A stretch of 39,509 nucleotides of DNA from Rhizaria sp. SCN 62-66 (taxonomy: Eukaryota). Within the stretch, counting starts at the first letter, position 1; every line of letters begins with the position of its first letter. Location: positions 62,001 to 101,509 of the forward strand of contig MEDY01000058.1 in NCBI GenBank assembly GCA_001724265.1. Reading direction: 5' to 3'. Shown piece by piece: positions 8,824 through 38,856 of the stretch. The translations under genes were made by a program, and so were the position numbers. The notes beneath the pieces are model-generated. The model was given only the letters and a program-made list of their open reading frames with translations, had not been told where the DNA came from and searched no databases.

Positions 8824-11391
8824 ATGAATTTCTCTGGTTTATACCAGAGCACTCACACACATGAGGAAAAGATGCAACGTATCCATGCCGCACTGGCTCC
8901 ACTAATCGCACTTTCGACGAATCTTGACCACCTCCGCATATTCCGGGATATCGTGATGTAGAACGCCTTTAACGTCGCTCCGCTGGCCGAGGCCAACGTT
9001 GTGAGCGTGCTTTCGGGATTGCTTGGTCTTTCGGGTGATCAGGATTCTGCTCAGCGGTGCGATCTCGTTGTTGAGATGTTCGATCGAATCACGGGCGGCC
9101 AGTTCCGCGTCGAGGCTGGGTGCGCCATGCTTGCTGGGAGCGACGCAGTCGGGAAGCTGAGCAGCTACCTTCTTACAGGTCAAGATGACAAGCTTGCGCT
9201 TCGTATTCTCAGCCTTGTGAAGTCGATCGCTGCGTCTCCAGCGCTCGGTGCTCCCGCCAGGCACAGTGCGCTGACCACTTTGCTAGATTACTCATATCAG
9301 CTGCAACAACCTCAGCAGAGCAAGCAACAAGCGCAGTCGGTTGCCGTGAATGACAACGAACAGCAACCGTGGTCGATGCAACTGGGCGTTTCCCGAGTCC
9401 CACTTGCAATGCAGTGCCAAATGAAGCTTTACGAAGTCGTCGCCGAGCTCTGTATGCAGTGCACCCCGCCGGTGCCGTACGCCGTCGTCTCAGGATTCGT
9501 GCCCGTGCTGCTCGCTGCGCTTGAGCGACACGCGGGCGGCACGCAGGATATCGATGATGGCATTTGCTATGCAGCGTACGGCGCTTTGTGCGGCGTGTTC
9601 ACGCCCGGCAGCGAGGCTGACGTCGCCGACTTCGCGCTGAGCGCCGCCTTCGACCCCTTGTTGCGGAGCCTGGTGGGTCACAAGACCTTGGCGTTGCTGC
9701 TGCACTGTGTATCTGTGCTCGACGCCGCCGCGCTCCGGCGCGTCCTTACCGCGGAGCGCCAGGAGGTCTTGTGCGCGGTACTTAGCGCCAGCCGCCACAC
9801 ATGGACGCAGTGGACGATGAAGCCGCTGACGGAGCTGGTCTCGCGCGTCGCGGCCAGCGTTCCTGCTTTTGCGCAACTGTTTATCGACGGACCCGGCCTG
9901 GCGTTGCTGTTTAGTACAATTGTCTCGAGCTACCGCGCGTTCCAACCGTCCGACGGCGCAAGTCTGCCACGGCACTGCGCCTCTCTGCTCTCCAGTCTGC
10001 TGTCAGCGGCCGCGGCGTGCGAGGATGAGCCGCGCGCGGTGCAGCGCATGCTCGACAGCGGCGCCGTGCTCTGCTGCTGCGCGCTCCTCAAGTCGGCTGC
10101 GATGTGGAGCGGTGGCGCCGACAACCCGCCGGACAACGCACCGAGCGCAGACGCGGTGGGGCAGCTGCTGCGTGCATTGTGGGCGTTGATTGGTGTGAAC
10201 ACACGCGCACGTGCATGCTCCGTTTTACCCGCTGGTGTTGCACAAAATGACGGCACACTAGCCCCTCCGTCGCAACCACGGAGTCCCTCTGCTTTAGACA
10301 GCTTTCGCATGTGCCGCGGGCCACATACGCTTGAGATGCTGTGCTACGCCGACTGCATGACCCAGGCCGACAGCGGGCCCGCGCTACGCGAGCTCGGACG
10401 GCTCGGCGCGCTGCTCTAGGCCCAGTCCGTGCTCACGCCCGCCGCCGCGGCGGACAGCGCGGAGGGAATCGCGCTGCGCCGGCAGGCGGTCGTAGACGCG
10501 AATGCGTTCGCGCAGTCGAGCGTGGGCGGCTGGACTGACGCGTTCGACGACTACATCGCATGCGCATTGGAAGAGAGCGGCTATCCGCGCAAGCTTTTCT
10601 ACAACATGGTATCATCCCTGTACGAGCCGTTTGTGTCCGCTCCTGTGCGGGCGAGCGGCGCGCCGTCCGCGGCGGCGCTGTCGCTCCTCCAGGTCCGGGC
10701 GCGCGAACGTGTTTTTGCCAGCTTGCAGGGGCAGTTTGGCGCGAAGCAGCCGGGGGATGTGGTGATGGCGTCCCAGCTGCTCAACGCGCAGACGGGGCAA
10801 CGCGACGAGTATCGCATGGTGATTCGCTTGAATGATGGTCAGTTTCCCAGTCACGCGGCGCACTTCCGCGTTGCGACGCAGGTACGCGCGCTTGGCACGC
10901 ATCTGCACCGCTGCTTTGTTCCCCCGGGCGAGACTGCTGCGTCATTGCCTTTCGTGACGCTCTACAACGGCAGGCCCGAGGCCGCGTGCGCAGCTTGTCC
11001 GCTCGCGCTGCCGGAGAGCGACATTGTCTACGGCGAGTACACTGCGCCCGGCGCCGATGTGATCTACCCCGCTGGAACGGTGCTATTTTACCCTCGCACG
11101 TTCGTGCCCATGTTGGTTCGTGGCGCTCCGCCGTGTGACACGCCTGTGTTCTTCGTGTTTAAGCCGTGCAGTGCGGCGCTGCTGCGCGGGGCCGTCCCCG
11201 TGGGCCGTGTGCTGTCGTGCGTGCCAGGTACGCAGCCCACGGCACACGACGACGGTGCGCCGTTTACCGATAGCAATGCACAGCCCTACGACGCTGCGGT
11301 GCTGCAGTGCTTCGAGGCGCTGTGCAAGGGCGATAAGTGCGCGAGTCACCACATCGATGTCGTCTCAGTCAATGCGTTTGTTTCATTGTGA
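8824..11391 (+). CDS. ARM-like + degenerate cyclophilin-like protein (paralog B, ~855 aa) containing two in-frame TAG codons (8959-8961, 10417-10419)
   Basis: One frame from ATG 8824 (or 8872) through the track ORFs 9001..10419 and 10429..11391. RIHAAL upstream of the first TAG and ESGYPR / HFR / CFVPPG / LPESD.VYGE / VFKPC...LRGAVPVGRV downstream of the second all match paralog A. Ends TGA. Confidence 0.8.
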
Positions 11392-16376: not shown

Positions 16377-18575
16377 ATGGGCGCGACGTGTTCCAAGTCG
16401 GACGGCGGCTCAGACGCCAACGGCGGCGTGTCTGTTGACGTGCACCGGTCCAAGGTGGCGCGCACGACCACGCACGGCTGGGTTGACGCGCCGGACCTGA
16501 CGCCCACGGTCACCACGGGCGACACATTCAAGATCGTCTTCCTGGGCTCCGCAAAGGTCGGCAAGACCTCGCTCGTGCGCCGTTGGGTGCAAAACGCTTT
16601 CGACACTGAGTGCTACACGCCGACCGTGCGCGTGGACATTGTCTCGCGCATGGTCGCCGTCAAGAACACGATCGTGAACCTCGAGGTGTGGGACGCTCCC
16701 TCGCACCCAGATGTGCGCGACCACATGCTCGACACCTACTACGACGGCGCGGACGCCGTCATCCTCGTCGGCGACGTGCTCCGGCCCGCCTCCTTTAAGG
16801 ACCTGGGCGACACCGTCATGGCGCGCCTCACCGCGTACTGCGGCCTTCACTACAACGAAGTGCTGCCCCTGGTGGTCATGTTGGCCAACAAGAAGGACCT
16901 ACAGGAGGGGCCCGCGAGCGCAGTCATGTCCGAGGAGGTCTGCCAGATCACGGCCGAGACCTACGGCGCTGAGCGCGCGTTCCTGACTTCCGCGCTGACG
17001 TCTGACCGCGTGGACGACGCGATGGAGTATGTGCTCGCGCAGCTGCTGCAGCGGCCGCAGCGCGTGTGGCGCGACGCAGACGAGACCTACCTCGCGCGCG
17101 CGGCCGAGCGGCGGCAGAAGGAGGCCGACGCCGCCGCGCTTGCCACGAAGCAGCAGGAGGAGGCCGACGCTGAAGCCGAGCGCGAGCTCGTCGCGGCCGC
17201 CAAGGCACAGCGCCGCGCGCTGGGCCTCGAGGTCGAGGACTCAGACCGCTCGGACGAGTTCGACGACGAGGACGCCATCGGCGACGAGCTGGGCGACAGC
17301 AACGGTAAGCTCGGCGGCGGCGGCGGCAGCGGCGCGCACGTGGCCGACGGACGCGACTCGGACTCGGACTCCGAAGGCGGGGCCAACGGCGCGGGCGGCG
17401 CCTCCAAGCGCCCCCGCTCCAGCGAAGGCAGCACCAACGGGGCCAACAGCGGTGGCAACGCCGCGGGACCCAACGGCAGCGCGAATGGCGGCGGGCTCAG
17501 CCGCGCACCATCAGCGCAGCGCCGCCGCGGGAGTAATCCTTTCGCGGGCGTCGTCGCGCTCACGCTGCCCGGCGCGCAGGGCTCCGGTGCCGTGCTGCGC
17601 CGCGGCAGCGCGGGCTTCCTGGGCCCCGCCGCGCTCAATAATACGGGGGCAGGGGGCGACTTCAGCCAGTCCGGCCCCGGGCTGGGCCCCGGCTCGCGGC
17701 CCGTCTCGTCGGGCCACGGCGTCGGCCGCCGCGCATCTCTATCGGACCTCAACAACAACAACTCGGCCGCCGCAGCCGCTGCGGCCGCCGCCGCGTCCTC
17801 GGCCGAGTCCGGCGGTGGCGTTGGCGGCGCGCTGGCCGGCGGCGGCGAAGGCGGGCTGCGCAGCAACATGGGCGGGCGGCGCGGATCGCTGCGGCGGCCG
17901 CAGAGCGGCGAGTACGTGCCGCCGTCGTCCGCGGCCGGGACGAAGCGCGTGGTCATCAGCGACGCTGTGGACGAGCGGAGCTTCGTCAAGGACCACGGCG
18001 ACGACAGCGACGACGGCAACAGCGACGATGACGCCGTTAATAACAACTCGAGCGCGGCCTCCGGCGTCAAGCCGTCTTCTTTGCTTGCGATGAACGAGGA
18101 CGCCGGCCACCACCGGGACCAGGGCAGCGACAACGACGACCACCACGACGACCCCGAAGACGACGGCGACGACGCCGAGGCCCTGCGCGCGGCCACTCCG
18201 CCCTCGGCCGCGGCCTCGGCGCCCGTGTCGGCGTCGGCGTCGCCCACCGCGGTGTCCCCCGCGCCCTCGCCGGGCCCCGGGCCGGTGTCGCCAACCAACC
18301 ACGGGCGCGGCCACAGCGGCGGCGACGCCCATGGCAAGCCTGCGGACCACGGTGACGATGGCTTCGACCAAGACGATGATGATCGCGACGGCGGCGACAC
18401 CGGCGACGGCGCTAGCGCGGGCGCGAGCGCGGCGGCGACGACCGAGGCCGCGAGCAACCACCACGACGACGACGGGGACGATGACAACGCAGAGGCCGAG
18501 GCTGCGCCGGTGGCTCGCCACCAGGAGGAGGAGCGGAAGGGCGGTGACGCCGACGACGGCTTTGATGAGGAGTGA
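16377..18575 (+). CDS. Atypical Rab/Ras-like small GTPase with N-terminal acylation signal and ~500-aa disordered tail
   Basis: FKIVFLGSAKVGKTS (G1), YTPTV (G2), LEVWDAPSH (altered G3), NKKD (G4), TSAL (G5); N-terminus MGATCSK; no C-terminal Cys; ends TGA. Confidence 0.85.
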   Translation: MGATCSKSDGGSDANGGVSVDVHRSKVARTTTHGWVDAPDLTPTVTTGDTFKIVFLGSAKVGKTSLVRRWVQNAFDTECYTPTVRVDIVSRMVAVKNTIVNLEVWDAPSHPDVRDHMLDTYYDGADAVILVGDVLRPASFKDLGDTVMARLTAYCGLHYNEVLPLVVMLANKKDLQEGPASAVMSEEVCQITAETYGAERAFLTSALTSDRVDDAMEYVLAQLLQRPQRVWRDADETYLARAAERRQKEADAAALATKQQEEADAEAERELVAAAKAQRRALGLEVEDSDRSDEFDDEDAIGDELGDSNGKLGGGGGSGAHVADGRDSDSDSEGGANGAGGASKRPRSSEGSTNGANSGGNAAGPNGSANGGGLSRAPSAQRRRGSNPFAGVVALTLPGAQGSGAVLRRGSAGFLGPAALNNTGAGGDFSQSGPGLGPGSRPVSSGHGVGRRASLSDLNNNNSAAAAAAAAAASSAESGGGVGGALAGGGEGGLRSNMGGRRGSLRRPQSGEYVPPSSAAGTKRVVISDAVDERSFVKDHGDDSDDGNSDDDAVNNNSSAASGVKPSSLLAMNEDAGHHRDQGSDNDDHHDDPEDDGDDAEALRAATPPSAAASAPVSASASPTAVSPAPSPGPGPVSPTNHGRGHSGGDAHGKPADHGDDGFDQDDDDRDGGDTGDGASAGASAAATTEAASNHHDDDGDDDNAEAEAAPVARHQEEERKGGDADDGFDEE

Positions 18576-18935: not shown

Positions 18936-20993
18936 TCACCATTGCAGCTGCTCACTGTCATCCGCGTCGTACACGGGCGCCGGCAGCGGGTCGTTCAAGA
19001 AGAACCCGTTGTCGCTGATATAGCGCAGACACTGCAACACCTTGCTGTACTCCTTGGTGACGTCGTCCGCGAAAAGCTTCCGCAGCAGCGACACGCTCGG
19101 CGGCGGCAGCTCCCTTTCCCCCGCGCCGCCCCGGCCGCCGCGCCCGCCGCCGCGCCCGCCGCGGACACCGGCGCCGCCGCGGCCGCCGCGCGCGGCGCCG
19201 CCGTTGCCGGTGGCGGCTGCGACCGCGGCAAGCTGCTGCTGCGTGTCGCGCAGCGAGTCCCAGGTGAGCGCGCGGGGTGCGCCCGTGGTCTCCTCGAAGC
19301 CGGCGGCCCCCAGCAGCAGCCGCTCGGGCGCCGCCGAGGCCGAGGCCGCGGACCAGGGGTTCAGGCGGGATAGTGATAACAGGCGCGGCACAGCGGCGTT
19401 GGCCGCGGCCATGGCGGCAGACGCGGGTGATGCCGATGTCGGGGCTGGGGCTGAGGCTGATGCGGAAGTTGAGGTTGAAGTTGAGGGCTCGCTTGCAGAA
19501 GTCTCGGTCACAGCTGCAGCCGCGGGGGTTGATACGTCGTTGTTTGAGAGAGCGTTCGTGTCCAATGCTGAGACTGCTAAGAGGGCAGCTGTGGCATCTG
19601 CCGCAGTCTCTGTCTGAGGCTGGCCAGTCTCGCTGGTGTTGACAGAGGTGTCTGCAGAATGACCTGCCTTGTCAGCGTCATCACCGGTCATCGCTGTGGC
19701 GAGACCAACTGCGGTGAGGTTGCCAGCATCGGCACTGCTCGGCGTCGCTGTGGCGTCGTCACTGCTGGTCACAATCTCATCGCCATTGCCTGCACTGGTC
19801 ACATCAGCAGCACCTGCAGCGGAAGCAGCGTCGCCCTTGTTGTTGCCGTCACGAGAAACCTTCGTAGGCTGAGCCTGAGCTTGTGATTGAACAGACTGCG
19901 ACTGCGCCTGTGGGACCAGCGGCGCGATGCGTGGCGGCGGCGGCGGGCCGCGCAGAGGCAGCTCCACCGGTCCCCTGTCGTCGTCGCTGTCGCTGGGGCT
20001 ATCGTCACCGTAGCACGACAGGCCCAGCAGCACTCTGCCGGCCTTGCTGCAAGAGTCCGAGCCCAAGCCCGCAGCACCAGAGCCTGAGCCTGAGCCGGGC
20101 TGTGGCGGCCTAGGCTGCCCCTCGCTGTCGTTGCTGTCGGTGCAGCTGCTCTGCGTCGCGGCATCGGCACTGATGACCGTGGGCCGCGGACGGCGGGGGT
20201 ACTTAGCCCTGCGCTCGGCCATCCACGCGCTAAGGGCCTCGGGGCTGCCGTCCGCGGGCAGGCGCGAGAGCAGGTCTGCAGGCACGTCGGGCGCGGGGAA
20301 AAACGGCGGCGGCCGGCGGCTGGCGTTCACTGAACTGTTATGAACAGGAGCGTTTGCACTTGCGCTTGCGCTTGGGCTCGATGAGCTAGAGCTAGAGCTA
20401 GCGCCGCAGCTGGAGCTAGGTGCTGCGACAACTGGCGTCGAAACTACAGTCGTGGTGGGGGCACTGTTGTCGTCGTCAGGGGGAAAGCGCACGTGGCGAG
20501 CAGAATCGCCGTTGTTGCTGTTGTTGCAGCTTTTGTTGTTCTTGTTACGCTGCTGCTGCTGCTGATGCTGTTTGCCATACTTCGAGTTACCATTCGCGCT
20601 ACTCTTGTCCGTACCTGGAGACAATGCCACTGTCGATGCCAAAGCATTGCTGCTCGCATTAGCGCCACTGTTGCTGTTGCTGTTGCCGTTGCTACTGCTG
20701 TTGGCCGAGTTTGTGCGTGCAAAGAACGTCGTCGAGGTCAGGAAAGACGGCGCGGGACGCATAGGGCCGCACGCGACGGCCGCGGCAACGGGGCCAGACA
20801 CGGGCCCGCTGGCCACCGCGGCAACACCGCCGGCCGCGGGGGTCGGGGAGTGCGCACGCTAGTGCGACTGCGAATGCGTCTGCGATTGTGTTTGTGAGGT
20901 GGTGGGTTTCTGGCCGAAAGAAGAGGGCTGAGATGGGGCAGCACCAAGGAATGGCGCTGCAGCAGCGTTCATAACTGCGGCCCAGTCCGTCAT
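18936..20993 (-). CDS. NUFIP1/Rsa1-like box C/D snoRNP assembly factor (~685 aa) with one in-frame TAG (20859-20861)
   Basis: SPEALSAWMAERRAKYP resembles the NUFIP1/Rsa1 PEP motif, and the C-terminal SLLRKLFADDVTKEYSKVLQCLRYISDNGFF resembles the NUFIP1 C-terminus. ATG 20993 (MTDWAAV...) is in frame with track ORF 18936..20816 across one TAG. Ends TGA. Confidence 0.72.
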
Positions 20994-22836: not shown

Positions 22837-23963
22837 GCGCGCGCGCTGCGGAGTGCAAAGCATGGACCCAACTCTCTTGCGTATGCATGTTTGATGCGTG
22901 TCTGTGTCTTTTTCTTTTGTGATAGTTTTGAGATCTGTGTGAGTCTGTTTAATGTAGGTTATAGATCAATGTATGAGTGTGTATGGTTTTGTTTTCATAG
23001 ACATTTTGGTTGCTTCAGTCGTGGGCCAAGACCTTGGTCGTCATTGATGATGTTATCTCGTCATCTCGTCATGTTCAGCGATGCAACGCACAAAGTCAGT
23101 TGCAGAGTGTGCGTTCAACTATACTAGTCGTGTATTATTGTATAAAAAGAAATAACAATAAATAATAACAACAATACAATATAAATAAACAAGGTTCTTT
23201 TTTCTTCTACATCATCTTCTCTCGACAAGTACACCCGGTAGCTTAACTCCACGTTGCACATTGTATGTACGTGTACGTATGTTCGTCTGTTGTATGACTT
23301 TAAATGGTGGTTAGCATGTATTGACTTGAGGTGTACTGACAATGTAAACAGAGAGAAATAGGGCGTATCGATATCCTAAAAAGAGGCATCAACGAAAACA
23401 GCTTATATAACTCGTCTTCCTTCTCGATCTTTACATGAAAGTACGGTGTGTAATTATCACGACAGGGGTGGAAAAACAAACAATCATTCAGAAAAAATAT
23501 CACTATTTACACATCAACAAGTATAAGTATATAATAAACATGTTATTACGATGAAATCAAACACATAATTTGTTACATCACAGTGGCCAGAGTACTAGAT
23601 TCGCTATGGGTGCAAGAGGAACAATGGTAGGAACAGATAGATCTTGTGTGTTAAATGCTAGGATCTACTTCAGAAAAAAGAGTTCATAGAACAAAACATA
23701 GAACAAAACTAATGAGATACACACGCCTTAAAAAAAAGACACGATGTGATGAAAAAAGATGCGATTACTCTTGAGAAACTGGATAAAACAAATGACAACA
23801 AAACAGAGATACAGACTTCTGTGCGATTACTCCTGATACCCTGATAAGCGTTGGGAGCTCGCCAGGACTAGCTTCCTAGACTTAATGTTGTTCTTGACAT
23901 GTTGTTAATGACGATGATGTTATACATGCCTTCGCCGCTTCATTGCACTGCGGGTGGCCGAGC

Positions 23964-26900
23964 TTACTGCGTCGCTGCCATGTGTGCGATGGGAGAGTAG
24001 TGCGCGTGTTTGCCGACCAACAGCGAGGATGGAATCGCGCGCAGCGCGGGCCTTTTTGTCGTCTCTTCGTCATCATTCTGTCTATTCCCGTTCGCGCCTC
24101 TACCATTGTTATTGTTCGCGTTGTTGATGAGATTGAGGTTGTTGTTGGCCTCTGCAATGTGCTGCGAAAAGGACCACTGCTGCTGCGGCTGCTGCTGCTC
24201 CGGCCACGCTTGATACAGCGCCCGGCTCCGCGACGCGTGCAGCGCGCTCGCGCTCGCAGCAGGCCCCGCGCCGTCCTGGCTGTAACCTTGGTTCAGGTTC
24301 AGGGGCTCGCTCGGCGGGTTTTGGTTCGGGCCGGGCACGACGCTGATGCTGCGGGACACCGACGGCGACCGCGGCGTCAGCGGCGACGCCTGAGACTGCG
24401 GAGGCTGTCCACCGCTGCTGCCGCCGCTGCCTCCGCTGTTGTTGCTGTTGCTACGCGCCATCGCGCCCGCGCCGGTGATCGCGCCCGTGGCGGCAGCGAT
24501 CGTGATGGGCACCGCCAGCTGCATCGTCGGATACGGCGCCTGCCCGCCCCCGTTGCCGTAGCCCGGGCTGCCGCCGCCGAACGCGGGGCTCGGCTGGAAG
24601 CGCGGGCTGAACTGCGTCTGCGGCTGCGCTGCCTGCGCCGACACACGCGGCGTCGGAGGTTGCGACTGCGGCTGCTGCGGCGGCGGCTGCTCTTGCTGAT
24701 CAGGCTGAAACGAGGGCTGAGGCGGCGGATGCGAATGCGACGACGCCAACTTGCGCGGGCTCGACAGCGCTTGCGGCCGCGACGGCGACGGCGGCTGTGG
24801 CTGCAGCGGCGGCTGGGACTGGGGTTGCGGCCGCGCCGGGGACAGCGGCGGCTTCGGAGGCTGCGCTTGCGACTGCGCCGGTGGCTTGGGCTCAGGCTGC
24901 GAGTGCAGCTCCGGCTCAGGCTGCAGCTGCAACTGGAGCTGCAACTGCGGCTGCGGCTGCGGCTGCGGCTGCGGCGGCTGTACCTTCGTTGGCGAGGGCT
25001 GCGAGCGCGGCGACGCCTTGGGCGAGAGCGGGGCGGCCGCCGCCTTGGTGCCAAGACCCGGGCTCTGCCGCTGTTGCTGCGCCGCCGTCACGGCAGCGGA
25101 GCCGAGCCCCAGCTCGACTGCGGCCGCGGCGTCACTGTCGCTGATGTTGACCGTGACGATGTCGCTCAACGCAACGTCCCCCGCGGCGTCGGCGGCGGCC
25201 GCGGTGTCGACGGCGTCAAGCACCGATAGCGGCGCCGGCCTCGCGCGGTGGGGCCGCGCGCGCTTCTCCGAGCCCGACGGCGGCCGCGGCTTGCGCGAGC
25301 GGCCCGCGCTACCTTCGCGCCGCGCTGCGTGGCTGGGACTGGCACTGGGATTCGCGCTCGCACCCGCGGCCACGGCTGCAGCGGCCTCGCTCGGGGGCAA
25401 GCTGTCGTGGGGACTGAGCGGGTTGAAGCTGGGCCCGTAGATCCTGCGCTGGTTAGCGATGTGGTTGGCCCACACGGCGCGCTTGTACGCCTCGTCGTCG
25501 TTGGCGTTCCACAACGCGGGGTTGATGCCCGACGCCAGCAGCGTCGCCGCGTCCATGTACAGCGGTCCGTCCTCCAGCGCGGCGTCGCTCGGCGACAATG
25601 GGCCCGCCAATGTGCTGCCCCAGCCGCCGTCCGTGGCGCCACTCTCGCCGCCGGCGCCGCTGCCGTCGCCCAACCGGCGGTTACGCCCGCCCTGCGACGC
25701 CGCGATGGCGGCCGCGGCCGCGGCGGCCGCCGCGGCGGACTGCGGCGCCGGCCCGCCCTTGCCGCCGCCAGAGAAGAGCCCCGGCGGCGGCCTGTCGGGG
25801 TCGTAGTGGGCGAGCGAGCGCGTGCTGGCGGGCACGCTGGTGCTGCTGTGCGCGAGGTTCTGTCCCGCGAGGAGCCCCGCCGTGCTGCCGCTCGCGGCCA
25901 GGCCGCCATTGGCTACGGGGCTCGGCGGCACCGCGGGCGCGGCGCGGTTACGCGGGGAGCCTGGCGCGGCGCCAGCAGCGCCGCCGACGCTGGCGTTGGA
26001 GCTGGAGCGGACCGCGGCGGCGGAGGGTCGGAGCGCGCCACCGCCGCCGCCCGCCGCGACGCCAACGCCGATGGCGTTGAGGACGGCGGCGTCGGCCACA
26101 AACTCGCCGTCGCCCTCGCCGCCCGCGCCGCCGCGGCCGCCCGAGGAGTTGGCGGCGGGCTCGGCGGAGAAGGAGCAGCAGCGCGCACAGAAGCGGCGAC
26201 AGGGCCCCGTGAAGAAGAAGTAAATAACCGCACCGATAATCGCGAGCGCAATGATGATGCAGATAGCGAGCACGACGTACGACATCGGGGGCTGGAGCCC
26301 GAAGAGACTGTTGCCGCCGCTGCTGACGCCGTCGGCGTAGACGCAGATGCCGGAGTAGCACTGGCCCAACCCGGGCTTGGGACCGTTGCCCGAGTACGCG
26401 GCCGAGGAGCCCGAGGTGGTGGTGGGGGAGCCGCACGGCATGCCCTGCGGTGTGGCCACTATGGTGCCGTTGGACACGGGCGCGCGGCACTGGGTGATGT
26501 CGTCGAGCAGCGCCGACGTCAACGAAGTGCACAACACTTGCTCGCACTGGCTCGTTGAGTCCTGCAGCGGGCAGCGGCGCAGACCGCCCAGTGCGCACGT
26601 GGCGTCGAGCGACAGGCAGTCGCCGTGGTAGCAGCGACCTGAGTTGTCGGGGAAGTCGTCGGGCGCGGTCGCCACTGCCAGCGGCGTGCAGACCTTGCCG
26701 GCGCTGGCGTACGCGTCCGGCGGGCACGCGCCGGAGGTGCCGCTGCACATCTCGGCCTGCGCAGAGCGCACGACAAAAAGTATCAATAATCATCACGTTT
26801 CATCAGAGACAATTAGGTGAGATAGAAACAAGCAATGAACGAACTCATAATCGAAGATTAACCCAGGGATGAATGAGTTCTCAAAAATGAAAAGTACAAT

Positions 26901-29900
26901 ACACGCGTTGTGATCAAGTAATGCACTATGTTCGACGTACGGTGTCGCAAAGCGGGTGCGCAGCCGCGCGGCAGACGAGTTTGTCGCTGGCGGGCACGTA
27001 CGAGCACTGGTCGCAGCAGGGCTCCGCGTTCGAGCACTGGCTGCCCGTGGTCAGCATGCACAGTTCCGGTACGCAGCATGGATCAGCGGCGCAGGCCTCC
27101 GAGCCCGCGGCGCCGCAGTCGCACTGCTCGCCAGCCTCGGTGATGCCGTTGCCGCACACGACCTCGGACCAGGACTCGGTGGGGATGTTGGCCAGACAGG
27201 TCGCAACGCCGTTCGGGTCCGTCTCAAACCAAGAACGCAAAAACTCTTTCGAACACTAAAATGAAGAAGAAAAAAAAAAGTATACAATGAGGAACTACAA
27301 CTTAAGATACAAGACCAGTAGGATCTCGAACTGGGGCGATAGTGCGCGCCATTGTTAATGAATATAATCTGACGGACCTGTGAGAACTCGGTGTAGGCCG
27401 ATGTCGAAGATGCGTAGGTGGACATGATCTTGCCCCCAGCAGGGCATGTAATGTTATTGTGGTCAACAGTAATCATATACGCGGGAGTACCGTCGTGCGG
27501 CATGCCGAACGTGTGGCCCAGCTCATGCGCCACGACCATGCCGAGCATCGATTCGCCGAAAACGGCAGGAATCGCCTAGTGTACGAATGTTGTGAAAAAG
27601 AATCGTGAATAAATAAAATTTAATGAAGAGAAAATCAGGCATGTGTCGTGCGAATGATGCAAAACGATTGATGTTCATAAGTTTGGTGACATCATTAAGT
27701 TGACACTTCAAAGTTGAAAACTACTCACAGCATGTTATGCGTGTGTTCGGCGTACCTGAGCAATGGCGCCGGAGTAGGCGTCGGTGCACATATCATCCAG
27801 CTGCGCGAGCCCAACGACCTGATCCTGGAAGTACTGCCCCGACAGCATCACGCGCGAATCACACGGCTTGTCCGTCATGGACGACGGGTTGGAATAAACA
27901 AGGAACTTCTGCAGAAACTCCAGCGAGCCGATTTCTGAGCGCTTGCGCGTGTTGGAGTACACGGGTGCGACATACAATAAGGCCGGGAGATCCAGCATCA
28001 CGGTCTGTCCGACGAGCACGACGCGGATCGCCGGCGCGAGCTCGTTGCTCTCGTAGAGCCCGTCGACGATGTTGGCCACGCGCGCGCCGGACCGCGCGAC
28101 GAGCGTGGCGTTGCCACTAAACAAGGCGAGCCGCGCGGGATCGTGGTACATGTGCAGTTCCACGTACTGCTGCGCCGTGGGCACGGCCAGAGGGGACCAG
28201 GGGTACCGCCGGAGGTGCGACGTCGCAGTGGGAATCCCGGGGGGTGAGCGTCGGGCAGGCTGGACACGTGCGCGCGGCTGGTAGTGGCTGTGGCGGGACG
28301 CAGCGGTCGCGGCAGCAGCAGCAGCACTGGCACTGTTGCCGTTACGCGTGTTAGCAAGCGTGCTGAAGCCAGAAGAGCGGGCAGACGCGGCGTCAAGAGT
28401 GGCAGTAATGTCGGCAGTAATGTCGGTAGCATCATCGCTGTGGCTGTGGTCGTGCCCCCGAGCGTGACCGCACCAGTGCACGTCGGCTTCATTATCGTCT
28501 GCTGCATCGTCATCGTCGCTAACACCTGAGACAGATCCAGAGTCAGCACCCGTCCGCGCGCTGACAAGACCTTCGCTGCGGTCTTTGCTCTTGCTCTTTT
28601 TGTCCCGGTGGGCGTTTATAAGGGCGCGCAGTTCGTTGTCCTGCTCCGCCAGGCGCTGCAGCACGTACGAATCAGCGCCAACCGCACGCGGCGGCAGCAG
28701 TGTGCCAGCGCGCGCGCCCGCGACGGCGGCCGCGTCGAACGGCCGCGGGTCACTGCTGCTGGGGCCGTGATTGGTGCTGGTGCTTCGAGTGCCCATCGAC
28801 ATAGATGAGGAGCCCGAGCCGGAGTTGGAATTGATAATCATGTCGGTGTCGGTAAACAAGAGGCGGCGCCACATATTGTTGTTCATGTTTGCCTGGATCT
28901 TGTTGTAGCTGGAGCTAGGACTGGACCTAGCTTCAGAGTCAATGTGGTCCGAAGCATCAGTGCCCGGCGCAAGGTTCGGCAGCTCTTCACTAACGCTGGC
29001 ACCCGCCGAGTCGGAAACTCGCACAGCAGGCGCGACGTCGTACAGCTCCCCGTCGATCTTGACCACGCCGGAGAGCGCGCCGCCGCAGACCGATACGGCG
29101 GCGAAGCCGTGCGCAACGTAAAACGCGGCGGCATCGGGCTTAGTCGTGGACGCACTAGCGGCGCCAGTGTCGCGGTCGGCCAAGTCAGTGCCTTCGCTGT
29201 CAAACGCGACGACGTCGGCGTCATCGCCACTGGTGTCGCCCGTATTGCTGTTGATCGGCTCTAGCACGCGGCCGCGGTAGTGGCAATTCTCGCCCGGCTG
29301 CAGGGCGTAGGCGCGCTCAGTCCTCCCGTGCGCGTCAGCAGGACTCGTGTTGTCGCTGCCGCCCGCGGTGCTGTGTGTGTCCAGAGGAGACTACTTGTGC
29401 AAAGCGTACGTAGGAGCAAAGAGCACGTCATTACGCTGTAGCTGCAGCAAAAACGTGCGCTATTGGGTTGTCGCGGCGTTGACATCCGTGGTGTTGCTTG
29501 CCGTCGGGATATTCAGAGTGATTGTGATCGCAACGTCAGCCTTGCCATGAACGCCCTCCTCGCCGTCTTCACCAATGACATCCTCAATGCCGTCAGTGTC
29601 GGAGTTCGGGACCGAGGCAGTGCGGGCAGCGTGGCCGCGGCGGAAAAACTGCGCCCAACGCCGCTCCGAGGTGCGGCGGCGCAAAGCCAACGCATCAGTC
29701 GCTGTGCCGGCGCCAGAGGCAGTAGAACCCGAGGTTGAGGCAGAGATGGAGGCAGCACTCGCTGTGGTTGCGAATGGCGAGGTGGCAGCAGCATCGGCGT
29801 TGCCTGAAGCGGAACGACGCACGCGAGGTACAAACTGCACGGAGAGCGTTGCAGGATTAATGCCGATAGGCAGTGGAGTGGTTGCAGCGAATGTAACAGC

Positions 29901-30017
29901 TGGTGCGAATGCACAGATGGTGGCTGCAAGTAGAATTAGCGACCAAGCAAGCAGATTCCGAGGGGGACCCGCGCCGCCGAGCAACGGGCTCGATGGCGCC
30001 CTTTGGGCTGCAGACAT
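23964..30017 (-). CDS. ADAM-family (M12B reprolysin) membrane metalloprotease, 4 exons: 30017-27756, 27575-27378, 27255-26941, 26756-23964; ~1855 aa; two in-frame TAGs (29460-29462, 29391-29393)
   Basis: Signal peptide; prodomain motifs FLLQLQRNDVLFAP, NCHYRGRV, AAVSVCGGALSGVV; cysteine-switch-like HWCGH; zinc motif HELGHTFGMPHD; Met-turn KIMS; FSQCS; disintegrin CGNGITEAGEQCDCG...CDTAEMCSGTSGACPPD; Cys-rich region; TM YVVLAICIIIALAIIGAVIYFFF; long P/Q-rich tail; ends TAA. Confidence 0.9.
26757..26940 (-). other. Spliceosomal intron 3 of ADAM, phase 0
   Basis: ACC|gtacgt ... gcgcag|GCC restores CDT-AEMC. Confidence 0.9.
27256..27377 (-). other. Spliceosomal intron 2 of ADAM, phase 0
   Basis: CAG|gtccgt ... 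ttttag|TGT restores EFSQ-CSKEF. Confidence 0.9.
27576..27755 (-). other. Spliceosomal intron 1 of ADAM, phase 0
   Basis: CAG|gtacgc ... cactag|GCG joins SGAIAQ to AIPAVFGESMLGMVVAHELGH. Confidence 0.85.
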
Positions 30018-30699: not shown

Positions 30700-33600
30700 T
30701 TACACAACCACAGACCTGAAATGTGCGTAATTTGTCTCGCTCACAGCACGGTGACGGATGGCATTGCTGTCTGGTTCTGCCCTTTCAATAAGGGCAGGGG
30801 CAGTCATAGCTGCGACTGGTGTCACTGTTCCGCGTTGCCGCCGCATCTCGTGGCTGTTGATACTGGATTTGTTAAGGTCTCCGCTGACGAAGCTCTCGGT
30901 GACAAACGCTGTCTCCAGCGGCAGCGGTACCATTGGCACGGAGAGGTCAGTGTCTGTCGGGACAGCGCTAATAAGACTCCCATCCGTGCGTGTGCGCCTT
31001 GGCGTAAGCAAATCGCTCCTACCGTCCTGGTTACTGTCAGAGGCATTACGCGTGTGTCTCTCATCAATAGCATGAGCAGAGCTCCCGCCGATGTTGATAC
31101 GCCTTGGTTTGTCAGAGCGACGCTCTGAAGTCGCAGCATCTAACCCCGCACTTGCCCCTGCGCTGTTAATGCCGTGTATCTCTGCAGCGTTTGTGGCAGG
31201 TAGTGTCGGCGTTGTTACTGTAACGCAGTGGGCCATGCCGCGGCCCCGCGCGATGACGCGGTTGCGGCTCCAGTGCCCCGCTGAAATCAAGACGCCGGCG
31301 CCAGCGTCAGCTTCAGCACAAGTTTGCCCAGCAGCTGCATTCACGCGGACTGAGCTGCCGCTGTCTGCAAGAAGGCCTGTGGTTGTATGTAATGAGGTGA
31401 CTGTGATTGCATCAGGCATGGTGCACCCAATACTGCTGCCGCCCCAACCTTGCTTTGTTAATTGTTGCTGCCACGCCTCTACAGCAGCAAGGGCGCCTGC
31501 TCCAGTTGGTTTAGTCCTTTCGGTGCGAGCGCTGGTCACCTCAGTGTCGTGGCTAAGTCGATTCAGTCGGTCCCCGCGCACAGGTAAAGGGCTCGACTCA
31601 ATCGGTGTTAGTTCACAGACGACACGCAGAAACAGCTCGCCCGGCGGTCCGCGCCAGCTTGTGGCGACAGCCCACTCCTGTGCCGTCATTGCGTGACTGC
31701 GACTAGTATGCATATGACCACGTGTGCTCATGGTTACATCACGATCAAATAAGCAATGGTCGGCTGTTGATAGAGGTTCAGCCGAGTCTGTGATTGCCGC
31801 GATGATAAAATTGGGATCGGGATGACCATTTGCGCCACTGTTGTGGGGATGACTATTGCGTGCATTTGTGTGAGCAAGAGCACGACGCCGATGACTGCCA
31901 GTTCGTGGTTGCTTCCTTGAGACAGTCGCGACAACATTCAACATCGGTGACATATGCACTATCGTGGCAGCATTGTTGCCACGAGTTCCACTCGCAACAC
32001 GGCTGTTGACATTACAATTGACATCGCCAATGTCTCTCGTTGACATGTGTTTTTGCCAGTATGCTGTGTTGGAATCACGCTGTAACACCCAATTACTGAC
32101 ATTGCGATGGTCGCTTGTTGTGGCGTCACTGTCTGTGTTACGACTATCACGATCGTCGAGATAAGAAATTACATTATCACGCTGCTAACTCAGCGTGTGC
32201 GTCCAAGCCCGCCATTTCACCCAGCGACGGCCGAGTCCAGCGCTCGCACCAACGTTACTGTGGCGGGATACACGGGAAGTACTCTCTCGGCTGCTCCGGC
32301 CAAAGTGTTCGTGGTTGCCAGAACATACGCTATCACCATTGGTTGGCGGAGTACCAGAGATCTCCCAAGGCGGGACGTCACTAACACTGCGACAAACAGC
32401 GTGGTATAAAACACCGCCATACATGAACACTCGCCGATTGCGATTTCGGTCATGGGTACCACTTTTATCAACACTTTTGACGTATTCGGCAATACTTGCA
32501 TTCAATGTGCTATTACTGCTGCCGGCAGATGCAAATAGTGGTGGCAATGCTGTTGACATGGTATCGCCTGGCTGTAGCAGCATCGCACCAGGCAGCGATG
32601 TAACAGTGAGCGAAAATCGCTTTAGGCCAGTGACTGTGTGAGGAAGCTCTGTAACGATAGGCGCTGGTGTAGCAACTGCGGGCATCGATGGGGGAACCAG
32701 TGGCACTGATATCACCGTGGGCTCTGATGTCGCTGTTGAGCTGGCTGTAATTATCGGGGTGACTGTGAGCAGTGAAGAGACATCGGTTGGTTCCCAGTTG
32801 CACCAACCGATAGTTCCACCGCTGTCAAATGCACCGCCGTCTTGACGATTGCAAACCGCGCTCGCTGTATCATTCTGACTGCAGCACCCAGTGGTGGCGT
32901 TAACGCAACTGTTTAGCGTAGCGGGAACGGTAGATTCTATACTTGAGCAACCCAAAAACGTGCCATCCTTAAGGCTGCTTGTTGTGTTAGCATCAGTTTT
33001 TGGAATTAATGTAGTTAGCGTTGTGCTTGTCCCTGTGTTAGTTCCATAAACAGCAGACTCAAGCGTTTGCGTCAGTACGCGCAGCGCCGCTCGCGGCCAG
33101 TGTTGCGCTAAGACATCGCTAACAGGCACACACCGGTACGCGCAGCCACAGGTATCCGCAAAACCCGAATTGTTACTCGAGACGCGTCCGCGGTGTGCGT
33201 GTGCTCGATCGTGTAATAGCTCGAAATCGGTGTCGTTTACAGCACCGCTCTCTGCGAGGTTCTTATTGGCGTCATCATCAAAGGGCTCTTGCTGCTTCTT
33301 CTCAAGAGCCTGAGCGGCGCTGAGTCGAAGCGCGTTGGCGCTTCCGGCCCATACGCGCAGGCGTTGAACGCGTGCGCGCTGTTCTTCTTGAGCTGCGCTA
33401 CCGATGACCCACCAGCCACCTTCACGACCAAAACTGCTGGAATTTGCCGTGCCACAGGAAGTTGTGTTAGAATAATTGCTAGCATCCCAATTACTGCTGT
33501 GGGTGACGTTGTCGGCGAAGTTTAAGTGGGTGCTGCTGCTAGAATTCGACGTAAGTTCTGTTTGAATAGGAAATAGAGTACACACTGGCGCGTTGCCGTT

Positions 33601-36600
33601 CACTGTTACAGTTGGCGTAGGAAAATGCAACACTCGGGCACATTCCTGTTTGCAATTGTTGTCAGGACTTGAGCTATGATTGCAGTCGCGTTCAACGGTA
33701 GTGACATTGAAATTACCACAGCCCCAGCCCCAAGTTGGCGGCACGCTATGGCTAACTAGACTTAACTCCGATCGCTCTAAAGATGCAAGCGTAACAACAT
33801 CAACTGCATGTACATCTTGCCTCAGTGTGTTAGCTCCATAACGTAAGCTATCAACGCTGAATTCACTAGCGAGGTCTGGCAATATTGACTTGAGACGCAA
33901 GCTGGCGCTGCTAACGTTATCGTGCCTGTGACGCAGCATGCAGGGCGGCACAGCGGGTACGCGTGAAGGAATATAGAGTGCTACAAACCCCTCTAAGCTC
34001 TCAACACTTACATCACCTGCATCTGCACCAAGAATATTGCGTCCAATCCATGGTGTAGTTGGATACCGGAGTGGCAGCGGTGCACGTGGCATTAGTACAC
34101 TCTCGCACACAAAGTTCAGCCGTCCTCCTAGTGAGCGTGTACGCAGCCTATGCCCAAGGCCCGAAGTAAGCTGCGCAGTTAAGTCGGCTGCTGCGAGTAC
34201 CTCACGAGCAGCTGTCCCATTTAAAGCTGTTGATGCCGCGATATCTCGCGAGTTGCCGGCGTGATCTAAGTACTTCTTGGAGCGCCGCAAGTAATCAGAG
34301 CGCATCGCACGGGCTCGTTGTTGTAATAGCTCTGTCAACGCCATTTTAGCGTCAACAGAAGTAGAGTCATGGGGTACTGCTGTTGGTGTTAAAGGCGTTT
34401 TGAGCGTCGGAATCGGAGCCGCACCAAACGGACTCAACATTGTATCGCGCTCACTTGCCGCCACTGCCGCAAACTCAAGCATTTGCGTAAGCAAGCGCAC
34501 ACTTCGTTTCTCGTGTCCCTCTCGCAACTTAAGCCCCACTGCAGCAGCCACATCTGCTGGAAGCCCACTGGTGATTCGGCGTAACCGACTATCGTTGCTC
34601 CAATTGCTGTCAGTGCTGGGGTTATGCCGATCACTGTGTCGTGTGTTATTGTTGTATATAGCCGCCAGAGCAAATGCGGGTGCAACACTAGTATTAGAAG
34701 CTATGCTGCTCTCAACAAAATCGGTGTCGCGCAAGACAGGAGGACCGTGATCAACGTTGCTATAGTATCGACGTCGTGCGCGCTCAGCAGCATCCTCCAT
34801 TGTGCTCACGACCTCGTCGACAACGCGTGCAGTAGTTTTCTTATCATCAAAGATGCCATCGTCATTAAACGGCTCTATAATGGCAGTGCTCTCAATTGGA
34901 ACACTCGCACTGCCGTTGTTCAAAAATGTAGCAAGTGTTGGATTAGATCCGTAACTCGCATTTGTGCTGCCATCTATAATACGCAATGGGCGAGCTGTTG
35001 CCGCAGTCACGATTGAGGGGGGTGCTGCTTTTGCGATTTGTTGTAGCTGTAAGACAGCAGTTGCATACTTGCAAACAGCGTTGCGCAGTGTTACTCGCCT
35101 ATCACGACTGTAGCAGTGATTGCTCGACTCATTGATTTCATGATTGAGGTTAAAATTCTTATCTAACAGCATGACACAGTCGTCGGTGCGGTTGTCGACT
35201 CGATGCACAGCTGAGCTAGATAGGTTGCTCATGTGTCTATGCATGCACGCTTGGAGAAACTCATGCCGCTTCCGATGCCACTCCTGTATCACCTGATCGG
35301 CAAGAGCTGCCGCCTCCGTCGCTACTTCAACAGTTGAGGGATCCGTCTCCAAAGCCGCCCACAGAGCGCGCCGCAGCCTCAACTCGTTTTGCTCGCTCAT
35401 TGACGGACTACCCTGGTCTCCTTCTGCGCGACCGTAAGCAGCTGCAGAGGCCGCACGGCTATAGCTGTCGACAGAGTTGGGGCGGCCATGCGCAGTGACG
35501 GTTGGTGCGTCAGCACGTGGAGTATAAATAGGCGCTGTTGTGTACAAGTCAAGCACGGTCAAACCCGGAACTTCATCATCTAAATGGCTATAAGCGTCCC
35601 TTGAATTAGCGTCACCAGTAGAATTACTAGGAAATCGGTGGCTTTCGTCCCAAACGTGTGCGGTGGCGCGCGAAGGCTTAGTGACTGTAAGCGCAGTCAT
35701 TGCAACTTGGTTTCCGTTAATCAAACAGTACACGCGGCTTGTAAACTCCGGTAGCGGTGACTGCTGCAGTTTGCTTGTTGTTGCGACAGAGGCGGCCCAA
35801 TCAAGAGCTGAGCGATGACGTCCTCTGGTCGTGTCTTGTCGTTCTGATGAATACTTTGGAAGTGTGTTGGGTAACGCAATACGAATCATTGTGCCGGTTG
35901 GGAGCACAGCGCCGCTTGCTAGGGGATAGCTAACAGTCAGCGTAGCGCGCGATAGCGTCGTCGGGTCCTACAAGATAACGCATATCGCAAACCATACATT
36001 AGAATATGAATGACTAATAATATTGCTTCTGTTGTTGCAACATCGACATGCAGTGAGGTATCATCAGGAAGATAAGATATGTTGAAAATGTCGGCGATGT
36101 TTTGAGTTGACCACACTGCATCAACGTACCCCGAACGACAAACGTGCACTCGTCACGACTTCGGGGACAGGCATAAGCGCTGGTCCTCCAATCGTATTGC
36201 TATCATTTTCGCAAGCACCATGAGTGCTTGATACATTATTATGGACAGGAAACATACAATTAGTCGTGTTTGTGGATGTGTTTGCTGCGTGTCTCCTCTT
36301 GTTGCCCGCAGTCTTTCGCCAGTAGTAATCGTGTTCCTCAATCATAGGGACTGCGCTTGCTCCAACAACAACACCTTCAGCCGCCACAGCCGCCACGTAC
36401 GCCTATGAGCCAGCACCGGCAACACCCTTGAAGTCACGGAAACTGCGGCTGTCACTGCCACCGAAATCGCCACCCGCCCGGCCTCGGCCAAGGATGTACG
36501 TCACGAGAAACGGGCCGCATACGGTGCTAAACGGACTGCCTCGGTGCAAGGCGCGTGTTGGTGTGAGTAACATCAAGCCAGAGTTGCTGCGGCCAGTTGC

Positions 36601-38856
36601 ACTTGCAGAGCTTGTGTTGGCAAGTATATTTGCTGGACTGCGATTACTACTATGAATATCGTACATATCATCGAGACTGTCCAAGTACCTGAAGTCGCCT
36701 GTGCACTCAACTCGAGCAAAGCCATTTCGATTTTTTGTACTACTTACACCTCTTGGAACGCTCGCGTTTGTCATAGACACAACCGGGTAACTTGTTTCGG
36801 CTGTTGCAACCCATGGCACTGGGTACGGCACAGGGGCGAGACCATTGGGGAAAGAAACAGTCACTACACGTCCTGCAATAACACTTTCTGCCGTATCGTA
36901 CATGGACCTGTGGTCGTAGCTGGCGCCAGCGTCACTGTTGTTTGTGTCCTTGACTGTGATTGAGTGATGCGGCGGCAATAGCGGCACCGCAGTCGTGCCT
37001 GTAAGTGTGACCCAATATGGGCCGCCGACACGAAAGACGCCCCGTCCACAGGTTGACTCGTGATGTTCACTCTCGGTCATCGTATTGTCGCTATAATTGC
37101 CCGACAGCTCACCACTGTAACGGTTCGTGTTAAGACGATTGCATGACTGCGCGTGAGGGTGTGGACGGATAAGCAACACTGCATCATGTTTATCACCGCT
37201 ATCGTCGGCGTTATTGGTATCAAAACAGCCTGTGTGCTCATTTATAGAGCTTGTAGTTTTGCGGAGAAAAAGCGGTACATGTGTGTACGGCAGTGTCAGA
37301 ATCGGCGACTGAGAGTGCAATTGAATACGCTTTCGAACTTTCTTCTGACCTTCTCCCTCAGAAGCCGCGCTGATGTGGGTATGACTGCGACCACGAGCAG
37401 GCGTAGTGTATGTTGACCACGGACGTGCGCGCACATTGACCGCTTCCAAATGAGTACTTCCGGGTGCAGTATCATTTCTGATGCGTGGGCTGCCTGCCGT
37501 AAATCTCGACGCGGCGACGCGAGCAGCGGCGCGATCCGCAGCAGCGGCAACTGCAGCAGCCTCTTTAGGCGGCAACGGTAGTAGCGACGGCAGCTCAGTA
37601 TCCGCGTACGTGTCTGTCAAGAGCGGAGTTAACCGCGCTGTTCGTGGTAACGTCAACTCTGCTTTAGTCACATTGCTTCGGTCAGCGGCATTGCTGTGCG
37701 CACCGACGTGCACGTCGACGTTGTCATCTTCGCCGCGCCTACTCTCGATTGTGCTGGTGACCAGGACGGACATCTTCGGTGGCCTGGTACTTGCCGCTGC
37801 CATGATGAGTGTGTCAAGATTCAACCTCGAATTCCGATTTGTCGTAGTGCCGCTAGTTGCGTCGAGCATGTCACTGCTGTTAAAGTGTGTGTTTAACGTA
37901 TGATTACTGGCCGTGTTGTTCTTAGTAAGTGACTCCGCAAGTGCGCGTCGCGCGTTTGAAGCTATCGACAGGACGGCGCCCGCTGCGTACGCATCCCGCT
38001 CACTGTCTGCGTTAATAACGACATCGTCATGCGCCACGCCGTTGTCAACAGCGGACTCTGCATATCGACGATCTGAGGATGTGCTTCTGCGTGTGGCTCT
38101 CGCCGCTGCTGGCGCCAGTGTCCGCGCGAGCGCGGGACGGAAGAACGGTCCACAGGTGACCAGTAGTGAATACGGCAACAACTCGCGGCAGCGCAGCGAG
38201 AGCGGGGGACTGGGTGGCAGCGACAACGCAAACGCTGCTGTCGCGGCCTTGGCGGCGCGAGATGGCGAGGGGGCTGACAGTGGAGGCCCGGGGCGCAAGA
38301 TATCGGCGTCGTATGTGCCGTCAAGCACGTCTGCCTCAGAGGGGCTGCAGCAAGAAGTGTTCGCACAAGGCGGTGAATACGTAAGGATAAGATCCGTACT
38401 CGTGGTGTCGGGACGCGCTGGCCAGTAAGGTCCGCAAGAGAACGCTTCCCACTGCGTGGCAGCGTCATGGCTGTTTCGGTGATGACTTGAGCTCGTGTTG
38501 TCAATACTGCTGGTATTGGTGTGAGATGGATGATCGCGAGGTGGAATTAGGTCAAACGCTAAGTTTTGCAACGTAAGACTGAGCGTGTCCCCGGGAGTCA
38601 ATGCAGCAAGGCGAAACGTGAAGGACAGGTAAAGCGCGTCTTCTGCGTTTGTCACGTTAGTGCGATCTCTTGATGAACCTGCTGCTGAAGGGTTGCCAGC
38701 GAGCATATGTGGGACGGACGTGAGACCAGCATGAAATGTACGTTCATATTCGCAACTCTGCGAAAACACAGTAGGGCCAAGAAACGAAAATGCCGCGATG
38801 TGCTCGAGAGCGAAGAGCAAAAAAGAGAGGAAGGCGAGCCACTGTGGGCAAGGCAT
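30700..38856 (-). CDS. Very large putatively secreted orphan protein (~2664 aa), 2 exons: 38856-36130, 35967-30700; two in-frame TAGs (36403-36405, 32185-32187)
   Basis: Track ORFs 36403..38856, 36121..36396, 32185..35907 and 30700..32088 join into one reading frame across two TAGs and one GT-AG intron. Signal-peptide-like MPCPQWLAFLSFLLFALEHIAAF; ends TAA. No family recognised, and the 3' end could be further spliced. Confidence 0.68.
35968..36129 (-). other. Spliceosomal intron, phase 0 (giant orphan gene)
   Basis: GGG|gtacgt ... tcttgtag|GAC; AT-rich; removes the in-frame TGA at 36121-36123. Confidence 0.78.

Follow-up and report, generated by a model that had tools for sequence, protein, structure and literature searches.

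Seven in-frame TAG codons, two of them in an ADAM-type metalloprotease gene, suggest that UAG may be decoded as an amino acid in a 39.5-kb eukaryotic window

Nuclear genetic codes in which UAG alone has changed from a stop codon to a sense codon are described, in the accessible parts of PMC5304391 and PMC11687900, for the uncultured rhizarian exLh (Leu), for Iotanema spirale (Gln), and for several phyllopharyngean ciliates; outside the ciliates they are rare, and the uncultured rhizarian and one fornicate are the cases named in those parts. The portion of PMC5304391 that deals with exLh reports that all of the 384 in-frame stops in 71 genes are UAG, that 56 genes terminate with UAA and 15 with UGA, and that UAG is scarce in highly expressed (ribosomal protein) genes. 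Codes in which both UAA and UAG (together UAR) specify Gln (NCBI table 6 type) are listed, again in the accessible parts of PMC5304391 and PMC11687900, for many ciliates, hexamitid diplomonads, some ulvophytes, an oxymonad, and Amoeboaphelidium protococcarum. The present analysis concerns a single 39.5-kb window, meaning the whole stretch of 39,509 nucleotides (nt) from contig MEDY01000058.1 (positions 62,001 to 101,509; deposited as Rhizaria sp. SCN 62-66), in which an ADAM-type metalloprotease gene carries two in-frame TAG codons and four other genes carry five more.

Compared with exLh, as far as that source describes it, the window is alike in having in-frame UAG in several genes, and its small set of 12 gene models ends in UAA or UGA throughout; it differs in frequency, since exLh has roughly five UAGs per gene and the window far fewer, with 7 in ~9,640 codons. 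In contrast to the UAG-only codes, the window is G+C-rich and has few, AT-rich introns. With the UAR = Gln codes, as described in the same parts, it would share the use of a stop codon as sense in nuclear genes; TAA is also sense in those codes, whereas in the window TAA closes 5 of the 12 models and joins no two open frames of at least 100 codons. A UAR = Gln code is a poor fit for the window, given that TAA acts as a stop in it. In the literature searched, no report matched a G+C-rich, intron-poor eukaryote in which UAG alone is decoded, and for opisthokont protists and aphelid relatives the only UAG reassignment retrieved was the UAR = Gln code of Amoeboaphelidium protococcarum.

Based on homology around the TAG codons, codon usage, and the behavior of the three stop codons in the window, UAG is probably decoded translationally here, by reassignment or by efficient suppression. 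In the proposed mechanism, UAG would be translated rather than terminating, either through stop-to-sense reassignment or, by an alternative route, through efficient suppression, which would combine a tRNA able to read UAG with a release factor that no longer recognizes this codon well, and TGA and TAA would be kept as stops. The ADAM gene would then be one continuous 1855-codon frame with both UAGs inside the propeptide, and its product would consist, in order, of a signal peptide, the propeptide, a reprolysin domain with HExxHxxGxxHD, a disintegrin domain, a cysteine-rich region, a membrane anchor, and a low-complexity tail. The insertion of an amino acid at UAG, the identity of that residue, and the accompanying tRNA and release-factor changes are proposed parts of this reading. 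The features of the gene are as follows.

23964..30017, minus strand: ADAM-type metalloprotease gene, 1855 codons, with Pfam Reprolysin and Disintegrin matches, exon lengths that are multiples of three, and ATG as first codon
30017-27756, minus strand: exon 1, with the ATG at 30017
29883..30017, minus strand: signal-peptide-like N-terminus, 45 codons, with the hydrophobic core LLAWSLILLAATICAFAPAV, judged by eye from the translation
29460..29462, minus strand: first in-frame TAG (TAG#1), placed by MAFFT opposite Gly in 6/6 homologues
29394..29459, minus strand: inter-TAG segment of 22 codons, RTFLLQLQRNDVLFAPTYALHK, which forms a propeptide strand and lacks an ATG
29391..29393, minus strand: second in-frame TAG (TAG#2), homologue column L/I/F/Q/Q/H, crossed by the custom profile alignment described below
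29265..29288, minus strand: NCHYRGRV, which closes the propeptide domain and has the form C-x-Y-x-G-x-V
27576..27755, minus strand: intron A, GTACGC...CTAG, 180 nt, 36% G+C, borders read from the sequence
27575-27378, minus strand: exon 2
27492..27527, minus strand: zinc-binding motif HELGHTFGMPHD in exon 2, HExxHxxGxxHD
27256..27377, minus strand: intron B, GTCCGT...TTAG, 122 nt, 38% G+C, borders likewise from the sequence
27255-26941, minus strand: exon 3
26941..27138, minus strand: Disintegrin domain in exon 3 (Pfam PF00200, E 1.4e-11, 45.5 bits against a cut-off of 35.1)
26757..26940, minus strand: intron C, GTACGT...GCAG, 184 nt, 39% G+C, borders likewise from the sequence
26756-23964, minus strand: exon 4, with the stop TAA at 23966-23964
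26211..26285, minus strand: hydrophobic membrane-spanning segment MSYVVLAICIIIALAIIGAVIYFFF, judged by eye

The catalytic domain was recognized by Reprolysin (PF01421) in exon 1 (E 2.3e-7, 31.4 bits, cut-off 20.8) and in exon 2 (21.4 bits), and Reprolysin_5 (34.0 bits) and Reprolysin_2 (31.6 bits) both exceeded their Pfam cut-off of 27. HExxHxxGxxHD is the defining motif of the ADAM/reprolysin family, and the gene resembles members of that family (MEROPS M12B) in the whole order of parts from the signal-peptide-like start to the putative membrane anchor. It differs from known ADAM/M12B proteins in its long low-complexity inserts, its tail of ~650 residues, the two UAGs in the propeptide, and a propeptide that scores under the Pfam cut-off. 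The three introns are all phase 0, and nothing in the gene is broken except for the two TAGs. A long low-complexity insert separates the propeptide from the catalytic domain (28400-29200, minus strand), and a HWCGHARG stretch within it may be a cysteine switch; the cytoplasmic tail (23964-26200, minus strand) is also of low complexity, with Pro/Gln repeats. A word-indexed protein search for ADAM relatives returned only the window's own fragment (1 protein at E <= 0.001 among 8000 scored candidates), and a full HMMER scan with the ADAM gene gave 15 proteins, of which two are pieces of the window, 12 match the catalytic domain only, and one (P0007) is a low-complexity match. The best relatives share 27-37% identity over the catalytic stretch, and the 40% of P0007 lies in the low-complexity N-terminus. 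Because the database matches are confined to the catalytic domain or to low complexity, no orthologue shows the residue at the ADAM TAG positions.

The ADAM frame was read from the translation of 30041-26650 (minus strand). On retranslation, the TAG positions given in the original prediction and the text that it quoted (NAATTQ, a TAG, RTFLLQLQRNDVLFAPTYALHK, a second TAG, and SPLD...PGENCHYRGRV) were reproduced exactly. The two TAGs are 23 codons apart in the same frame as the ATG at 30017, and 551 open codons follow TAG#2. It had also been noticed that standard-code calling of open reading frames (ORFs) omits the segment between the TAGs, and the protein collections bear this out: they hold the window's own fragments P0005 (185 residues, from Met to TAG#1) and P0001 (510 residues, starting 41 codons past TAG#2), which leave those 22 codons uncovered. 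A codon-usage log-odds score, trained on the homology-supported genes of the window and compared over six frames, was positive for the gene frame upstream of TAG#1 (+11.6, with the other five frames at or below -15.6), between the TAGs (+7.4, others at or below -3.2), and past TAG#2 (+50.5, others at or below -13.4). The region is not AT-rich, as had been stated, with 52-53% G+C against 36-39% in the three ADAM introns, and the predicted arrangement was also recovered, with the signal-peptide-like start upstream of the TAGs and an intact zinc motif, Disintegrin domain, and hydrophobic membrane segment downstream.

Homology to ADAM propeptides sets in right behind TAG#1 and crosses TAG#2. The assignment of the inter-TAG segment to a propeptide strand agrees with its alignment to six ADAM homologues, in which, for example, NDVLFAPTY of the window faces NDNIFAPTY of P0016, and CHYRGRV, earlier read as the C-x-Y-x-G-x-V motif, falls on that column of the six homologues. 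For the Pfam model Pep_M12B_propep (PF01562), a match across the span had been expected with TAG translated as X; the expected extent was found (E 0.005, residues 46-112 of a 207-residue piece, with both TAG positions included and the end at CHYRGRV), and the score of 17.8 bits fell below the cut-off of 23.7. PF01562 is a weak model for the ADAM family generally: 6 of 10 distant ADAM homologues matched it at E <= 0.01 with 23-35 bits, and the other four gave no match. A custom profile, built from the propeptides of the six that matched (P0009, P0010, P0012, P0013, P0016, and P0017) with the window excluded, and run against 700 six-frame pieces with TAG as X, matched the ADAM read-through frame alone (E 1.4e-5, 20.8 bits; the next of the 700 pieces had E 2.8). 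Its alignment begins with the residue directly after TAG#1 and runs from RTFLLQLQRNDVLFAPTY across TAG#2 to ENCHYRGRV. The inter-TAG segment lacks an ATG, and the first one past TAG#2 lies far downstream of the conserved propeptide motifs; the conserved propeptide therefore needs either a ribosome that starts at 30017 and passes both TAGs or an mRNA that lacks them. That both TAGs would have to be decoded for a functional membrane protease, as the original prediction held, is, we infer, the best-supported reading, with independent support from the five further in-frame TAGs in four other genes. TAG decoding is thus probably a property of the organism's code rather than of the ADAM gene, a point that the prediction had missed. 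The other four genes, numbered within the 12 models, are listed here.

8872..11391, plus strand: gene 3, with TAGs at 8959-8961 and 10417-10419, ending in TGA; tandem paralogue of the gene at 5694-8165
30700..35901, minus strand: gene 11, frames of 1261 and 495 codons joined by the TAG at 32185-32187, ending in TAA; on either side of this TAG the gene frame scores highest of the six
36121..38856, minus strand: gene 12, with a TAG at 36403-36405 and a signal-peptide-like start, ending in TGA; a weaker case, with an AT-rich window within 200 nt
18936..20993, minus strand: gene 7, with a TAG at 20859-20861, 44 codons past the proposed ATG, in a Ser/Gln/His-rich repeat; a weaker case

Gene 3 and its paralogue at 5694-8165 (plus strand) are collinear over 845 columns (BLASTP E 4e-93, 33% identity), and both TAGs of gene 3 lie inside aligned blocks, which speak against an intron at either. 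The first TAG aligns with a Ser of the paralogue. Around the second, gaps in an alignment of four sequences are never longer than one residue, and the other three sequences have V/V/E at its position; because the alignment is so poor in gaps there, no intron could remove this TAG without deleting conserved residues. Besides the paralogue pair, that alignment contains the database relatives P0003 and P0004 (38-40% identity), which start ~110 and ~210 alignment columns later than gene 3 and its paralogue. The family has no Pfam match, and an Atlas search pointed only weakly, with a score of 0.81, to armadillo proteins of the DUF3689/TRPC4AP type. In gene 7, the repeat reads tcg cag xcg cay, and by its register the TAG replaces TCG (Ser). 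Together with the Ser opposite the first TAG of gene 3, this gives two weak hints of Ser at UAG, which would be too few to propose that residue. In gene 12, a hydrophobic and then a basic stretch follow the TAG, so that read-through would add a membrane anchor. Genes 11 and 12 are both very large, rich in N-x-S/T sites, and without a Pfam match, and no paralogy was found between them (best E 0.67). They lie ~150 nt apart, and neither a clear start nor a signal peptide is evident in gene 11, so that they could be parts of a single gene. An intron linking them, with GTACGT (2 nt downstream of the TAG in gene 12) as donor and the TAG at 35968 as acceptor, was considered and rejected, as its phases do not fit.

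Over its whole length, the window gives the impression that TAG is no stop. The 12 gene models, ~9,640 codons in total, were drawn from frames closed by TAA or TGA, which makes in-frame TAA or TGA impossible by construction; they contain seven in-frame TAGs spread over 5 of the 12 models (ADAM gene 2, gene 3 2, gene 11 1, gene 12 1, gene 7 1), and they end in TGA (7), TAA (5), and TAG (0). When single stops with an open frame of at least 200 codons on each side were counted, there were three TAGs (one of them an artefact), no TAA, and no TGA, and TAA joined two open frames of at least 100 codons in 0 cases. Read-through of TAG fuses three pairs of long frames, one at 10417 (486 and 324 codons), one at 32185 (1261 and 495 codons), and one in the ADAM gene. 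The artefact is a TAG at 25227 (plus strand) that joins 443 and 442 codons antisense to the ADAM tail, whose G+C content is 70-77%; the long open frames at 23898-26558 (plus strand) and the off-frames over 24000-26800 are likewise composition artefacts of this tail, which ORF-based screens of this genome will pick up. A codon-score screen for stops with coding-like flanks passed six TAGs (five modelled, one antisense), two TAAs (true terminators), and one TGA (antisense); this screen was noisy, missed gene 11, whose codon usage differs, and was trained on a set that held two in-frame TGAs from a mis-set coordinate. The five TAG-interrupted genes contain no frameshifts and keep their coding signal on both sides, and homologue alignments cover the sequences around 4 of the 7 in-frame TAGs. 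The base after the seven TAGs is c, t, a, g, c, g, and c, with no shared base or motif, and the folding z scores of the downstream 120 nt are 0.36, -1.05, -1.41, -3.10, 0.07, 0.58, and 0.79, with 1 of 7 below -2. The lack of a common following base or downstream structure argues against site-specific read-through signals. The one outlier, the 123 nt from the second TAG of gene 3 (10417-10539, plus strand), folds at -72.3 kcal/mol (z -3.10, equalled by 1 of 200 shuffles), and the other six sites do not fold in this way.

A number of observations weigh against the decoding of UAG. TAG is rare (~0.07% of codons) and is missing from the most conserved genes of the window, namely those for the patatin lipase, the Ras-like GTPase, the acyl carrier protein, the VMP1-like protein, and the ankyrin protein. 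The aligned columns are inconsistent (Gly in 6/6; L/I/F/Q/Q/H; Ser; V/V/E), and PF01562 stays under its cut-off of 23.7 in all nine readings of TAG, from 16.9 to 20.3 bits (Gly 20.3, Gln 18.9, Lys 18.6, Glu 18.5, Tyr 18.4, Ser 18.2, Trp 18.0, X 17.8, Leu 16.9); an attempt to read the amino acid from these scores was abandoned, the spread of at most 3.4 bits being too small to decide. The absence of TAG among 12 terminators is a small count and only weakly unusual; with the standard code, the terminator of gene 12 would be a TAG. The TAGs of genes 7 and 12 are near AT-rich sequence and rest on drawn gene models. Neither ARAGORN nor Rfam detected a tRNA with anticodon CUA in the window, where the sole RNA gene is the following one, located between the patatin gene and the paralogue pair; no eRF1 gene lies within the window.

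4353-4435, plus strand: tRNA-Ser, anticodon AGA (ARAGORN/Rfam)

The remaining contrary points concern splicing. If the TAGs were removed by unrecognized atypical introns, the standard code would hold, and 54 in-frame GT..AG pairs of 20-600 nt could in principle take out both ADAM TAGs. TAG#1 (CCAATAG) and TAG#2 (CAAGTAG) end in AG like acceptors, and the acceptor of intron A is itself an in-frame TAG. A GTACGC at 29409, 16 nt upstream of TAG#2, is identical to the donor of intron A, and with the AGs ending at 29371, 29356, 29344, and 29323 it would define in-frame introns of 39, 54, 66, and 87 nt (51-63% G+C) that remove TAG#2; because propeptide length is variable near TAG#2, homology leaves room for these introns of 39-87 nt from 29409. 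However, they would not touch TAG#1, and the real introns, at 122-184 nt, are much longer. The donors of the 54 candidates match the three real donors at no more than 4 of 6 bases, all 54 have at least 52% G+C against 36-39% in the real introns, and none of the 60-nt windows within 200 nt of the ADAM TAGs falls below 48% G+C, whereas real introns reach 25-32%. Any intron removing both ADAM TAGs would also delete the strand with propeptide homology, and at the second TAG of gene 3 splicing would cost conserved residues of the gap-poor block. A two-intron model of the ADAM propeptide is possible, but it would require two introns unlike the three real ones, and splicing is on balance regarded as improbable. 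A change at the RNA level by another route, A-to-I editing of the mRNA, of the ADAT type, that restores UAG to UGG (Trp) as in the sexual development of filamentous ascomycetes, would explain the restriction to TAG. The accessible portion of PMC4817773 describes two tandem UAGs in PUK1, that of PMC10776026 counts 71 such pseudogenes genome-wide in Fusarium graminearum, and that of PMC11156358 states that fungal A-to-I editing favors a U at -1 and a position in a hairpin loop, which makes UAG and UAA frequent targets. The likeness to Fusarium graminearum (PUK1, AMD1), as these portions present it, lies in pseudogene-like in-frame UAGs, sometimes two close together, in genes that yet give full-length proteins; the editing described there differs from UAG decoding in the window in that it acts on mRNA, is stage-specific, always gives Trp, and concerns a share of genes well below 1%. 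Two of the seven TAGs (genes 11 and 7) do sit in small predicted hairpin loops, but the TAG adenosines are unpaired with a mean probability of 0.72 over the seven sites against 0.68 over 150 control TAGs, which is no hairpin enrichment. The density is also different, with 5 of 12 gene models here against 71 genes per Fusarium graminearum genome, Trp occurs in 0 of the 4 alignable homologue columns, and the patatin lipase of the window falls outside all sampled fungi (in a quick tree with long branches). Editing is therefore considered rather unlikely.

The TAGs could alternatively be true stops in recent pseudogenes, strain-specific nonsense mutations, or assembly errors, in which case the full ADAM protein would not be made. 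TAG is the commonest single-base nonsense product under this codon usage (52-55%), the affected genes are the less conserved ones and include the tandem duplicate gene 3, the most conserved genes are free of TAG, and a pair of TAGs so close together, 23 codons apart, could be the sign of a gene that was already dead. Even so, the finding that all seven interruptions are TAG has p ~0.010-0.016 under a nonsense-mutation null, for which the TAG share is approximate since the codon table used had gene 11 out of frame. Frameshifts are absent and the coding signal persists on either side of the TAGs, the ADAM gene keeps its three phase-0 introns, zinc motif, disintegrin domain, and membrane segment over 1855 codons, and five disabled genes among 12 neighbors would be extraordinary for a working genome; decay or error is accordingly held to be quite unlikely. 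UAG read-through by near-cognate tRNAs is a known phenomenon, and TAG might still be a stop with programmed partial read-through, giving a short secreted fragment and a little full-length protein, as would suit gene 12, where read-through would give an otherwise secreted protein a membrane anchor. Against this stand seven sites without a shared motif and with structure of z below -2 at one of them, two read-through events 23 codons apart that would multiply two small efficiencies, and a fragment ending at TAG#1 that consists of a signal peptide and low complexity without any domain, and this explanation is thought highly improbable.

The lineage of the window was approached through its patatin lipase, whose top two relatives share 70% and 51% identity and are followed, at 38-44%, by sequences from early-diverging fungi, basidiomycetes, an aphelid, an amoebozoan, and a streptophyte; the best matches that carry a name lie at 38-42%. 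A quick tree with long branches, supported only by the SH-like approximate likelihood ratio test (SH-aLRT), placed the window beside three sequences and away from every named row, among them 11 fungal ones (2 Ascomycota); the patatin lipase of Amoeboaphelidium occidentale (41% identity) is placed elsewhere in the tree. Rhizarians, fornicates, and ciliates were absent from it, so the window may belong to a lineage that is already known. Among the other genes of the window, a Ras/Rab-like GTPase (16377-18575, plus strand) starts with MGATCSK, which we take to resemble a lipid-anchor start, and carries an acidic, Gly/Ala/Ser-rich C-terminal tail of ~450 residues. A small acyl-carrier-protein-like gene (12068-12442, plus strand) ends in TAA and has no in-frame TAG, and a VMP1/VTT-domain gene in two exons (14074-14940 and 15190-15690, minus strand) has an AT-rich intron and likewise no in-frame TAG.

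If UAG is indeed decoded, the window could, as a more tentative proposal, come from a lineage that has captured UAG as a sense codon and uses it sparingly, at an early or low-efficiency stage of reassignment, with a variant nuclear code not previously known there. The assigned amino acid could differ from the Gln, Leu, and Glu that the cited papers mention as assignments, as the sole strongly conserved column under a UAG is Gly. Every standard-code annotation of this genome would then truncate or split genes, and the protease is already held in protein collections as two unrelated fragments. Read-through of both codons would make a full-length, membrane-anchored ADAM-type protease of what looks like a pseudogene. 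A G+C-rich genome with scarce decoded UAG would also offer a view of stop-codon capture, from the genes that are first to tolerate the codon to the means by which UGA and UAA go on terminating.

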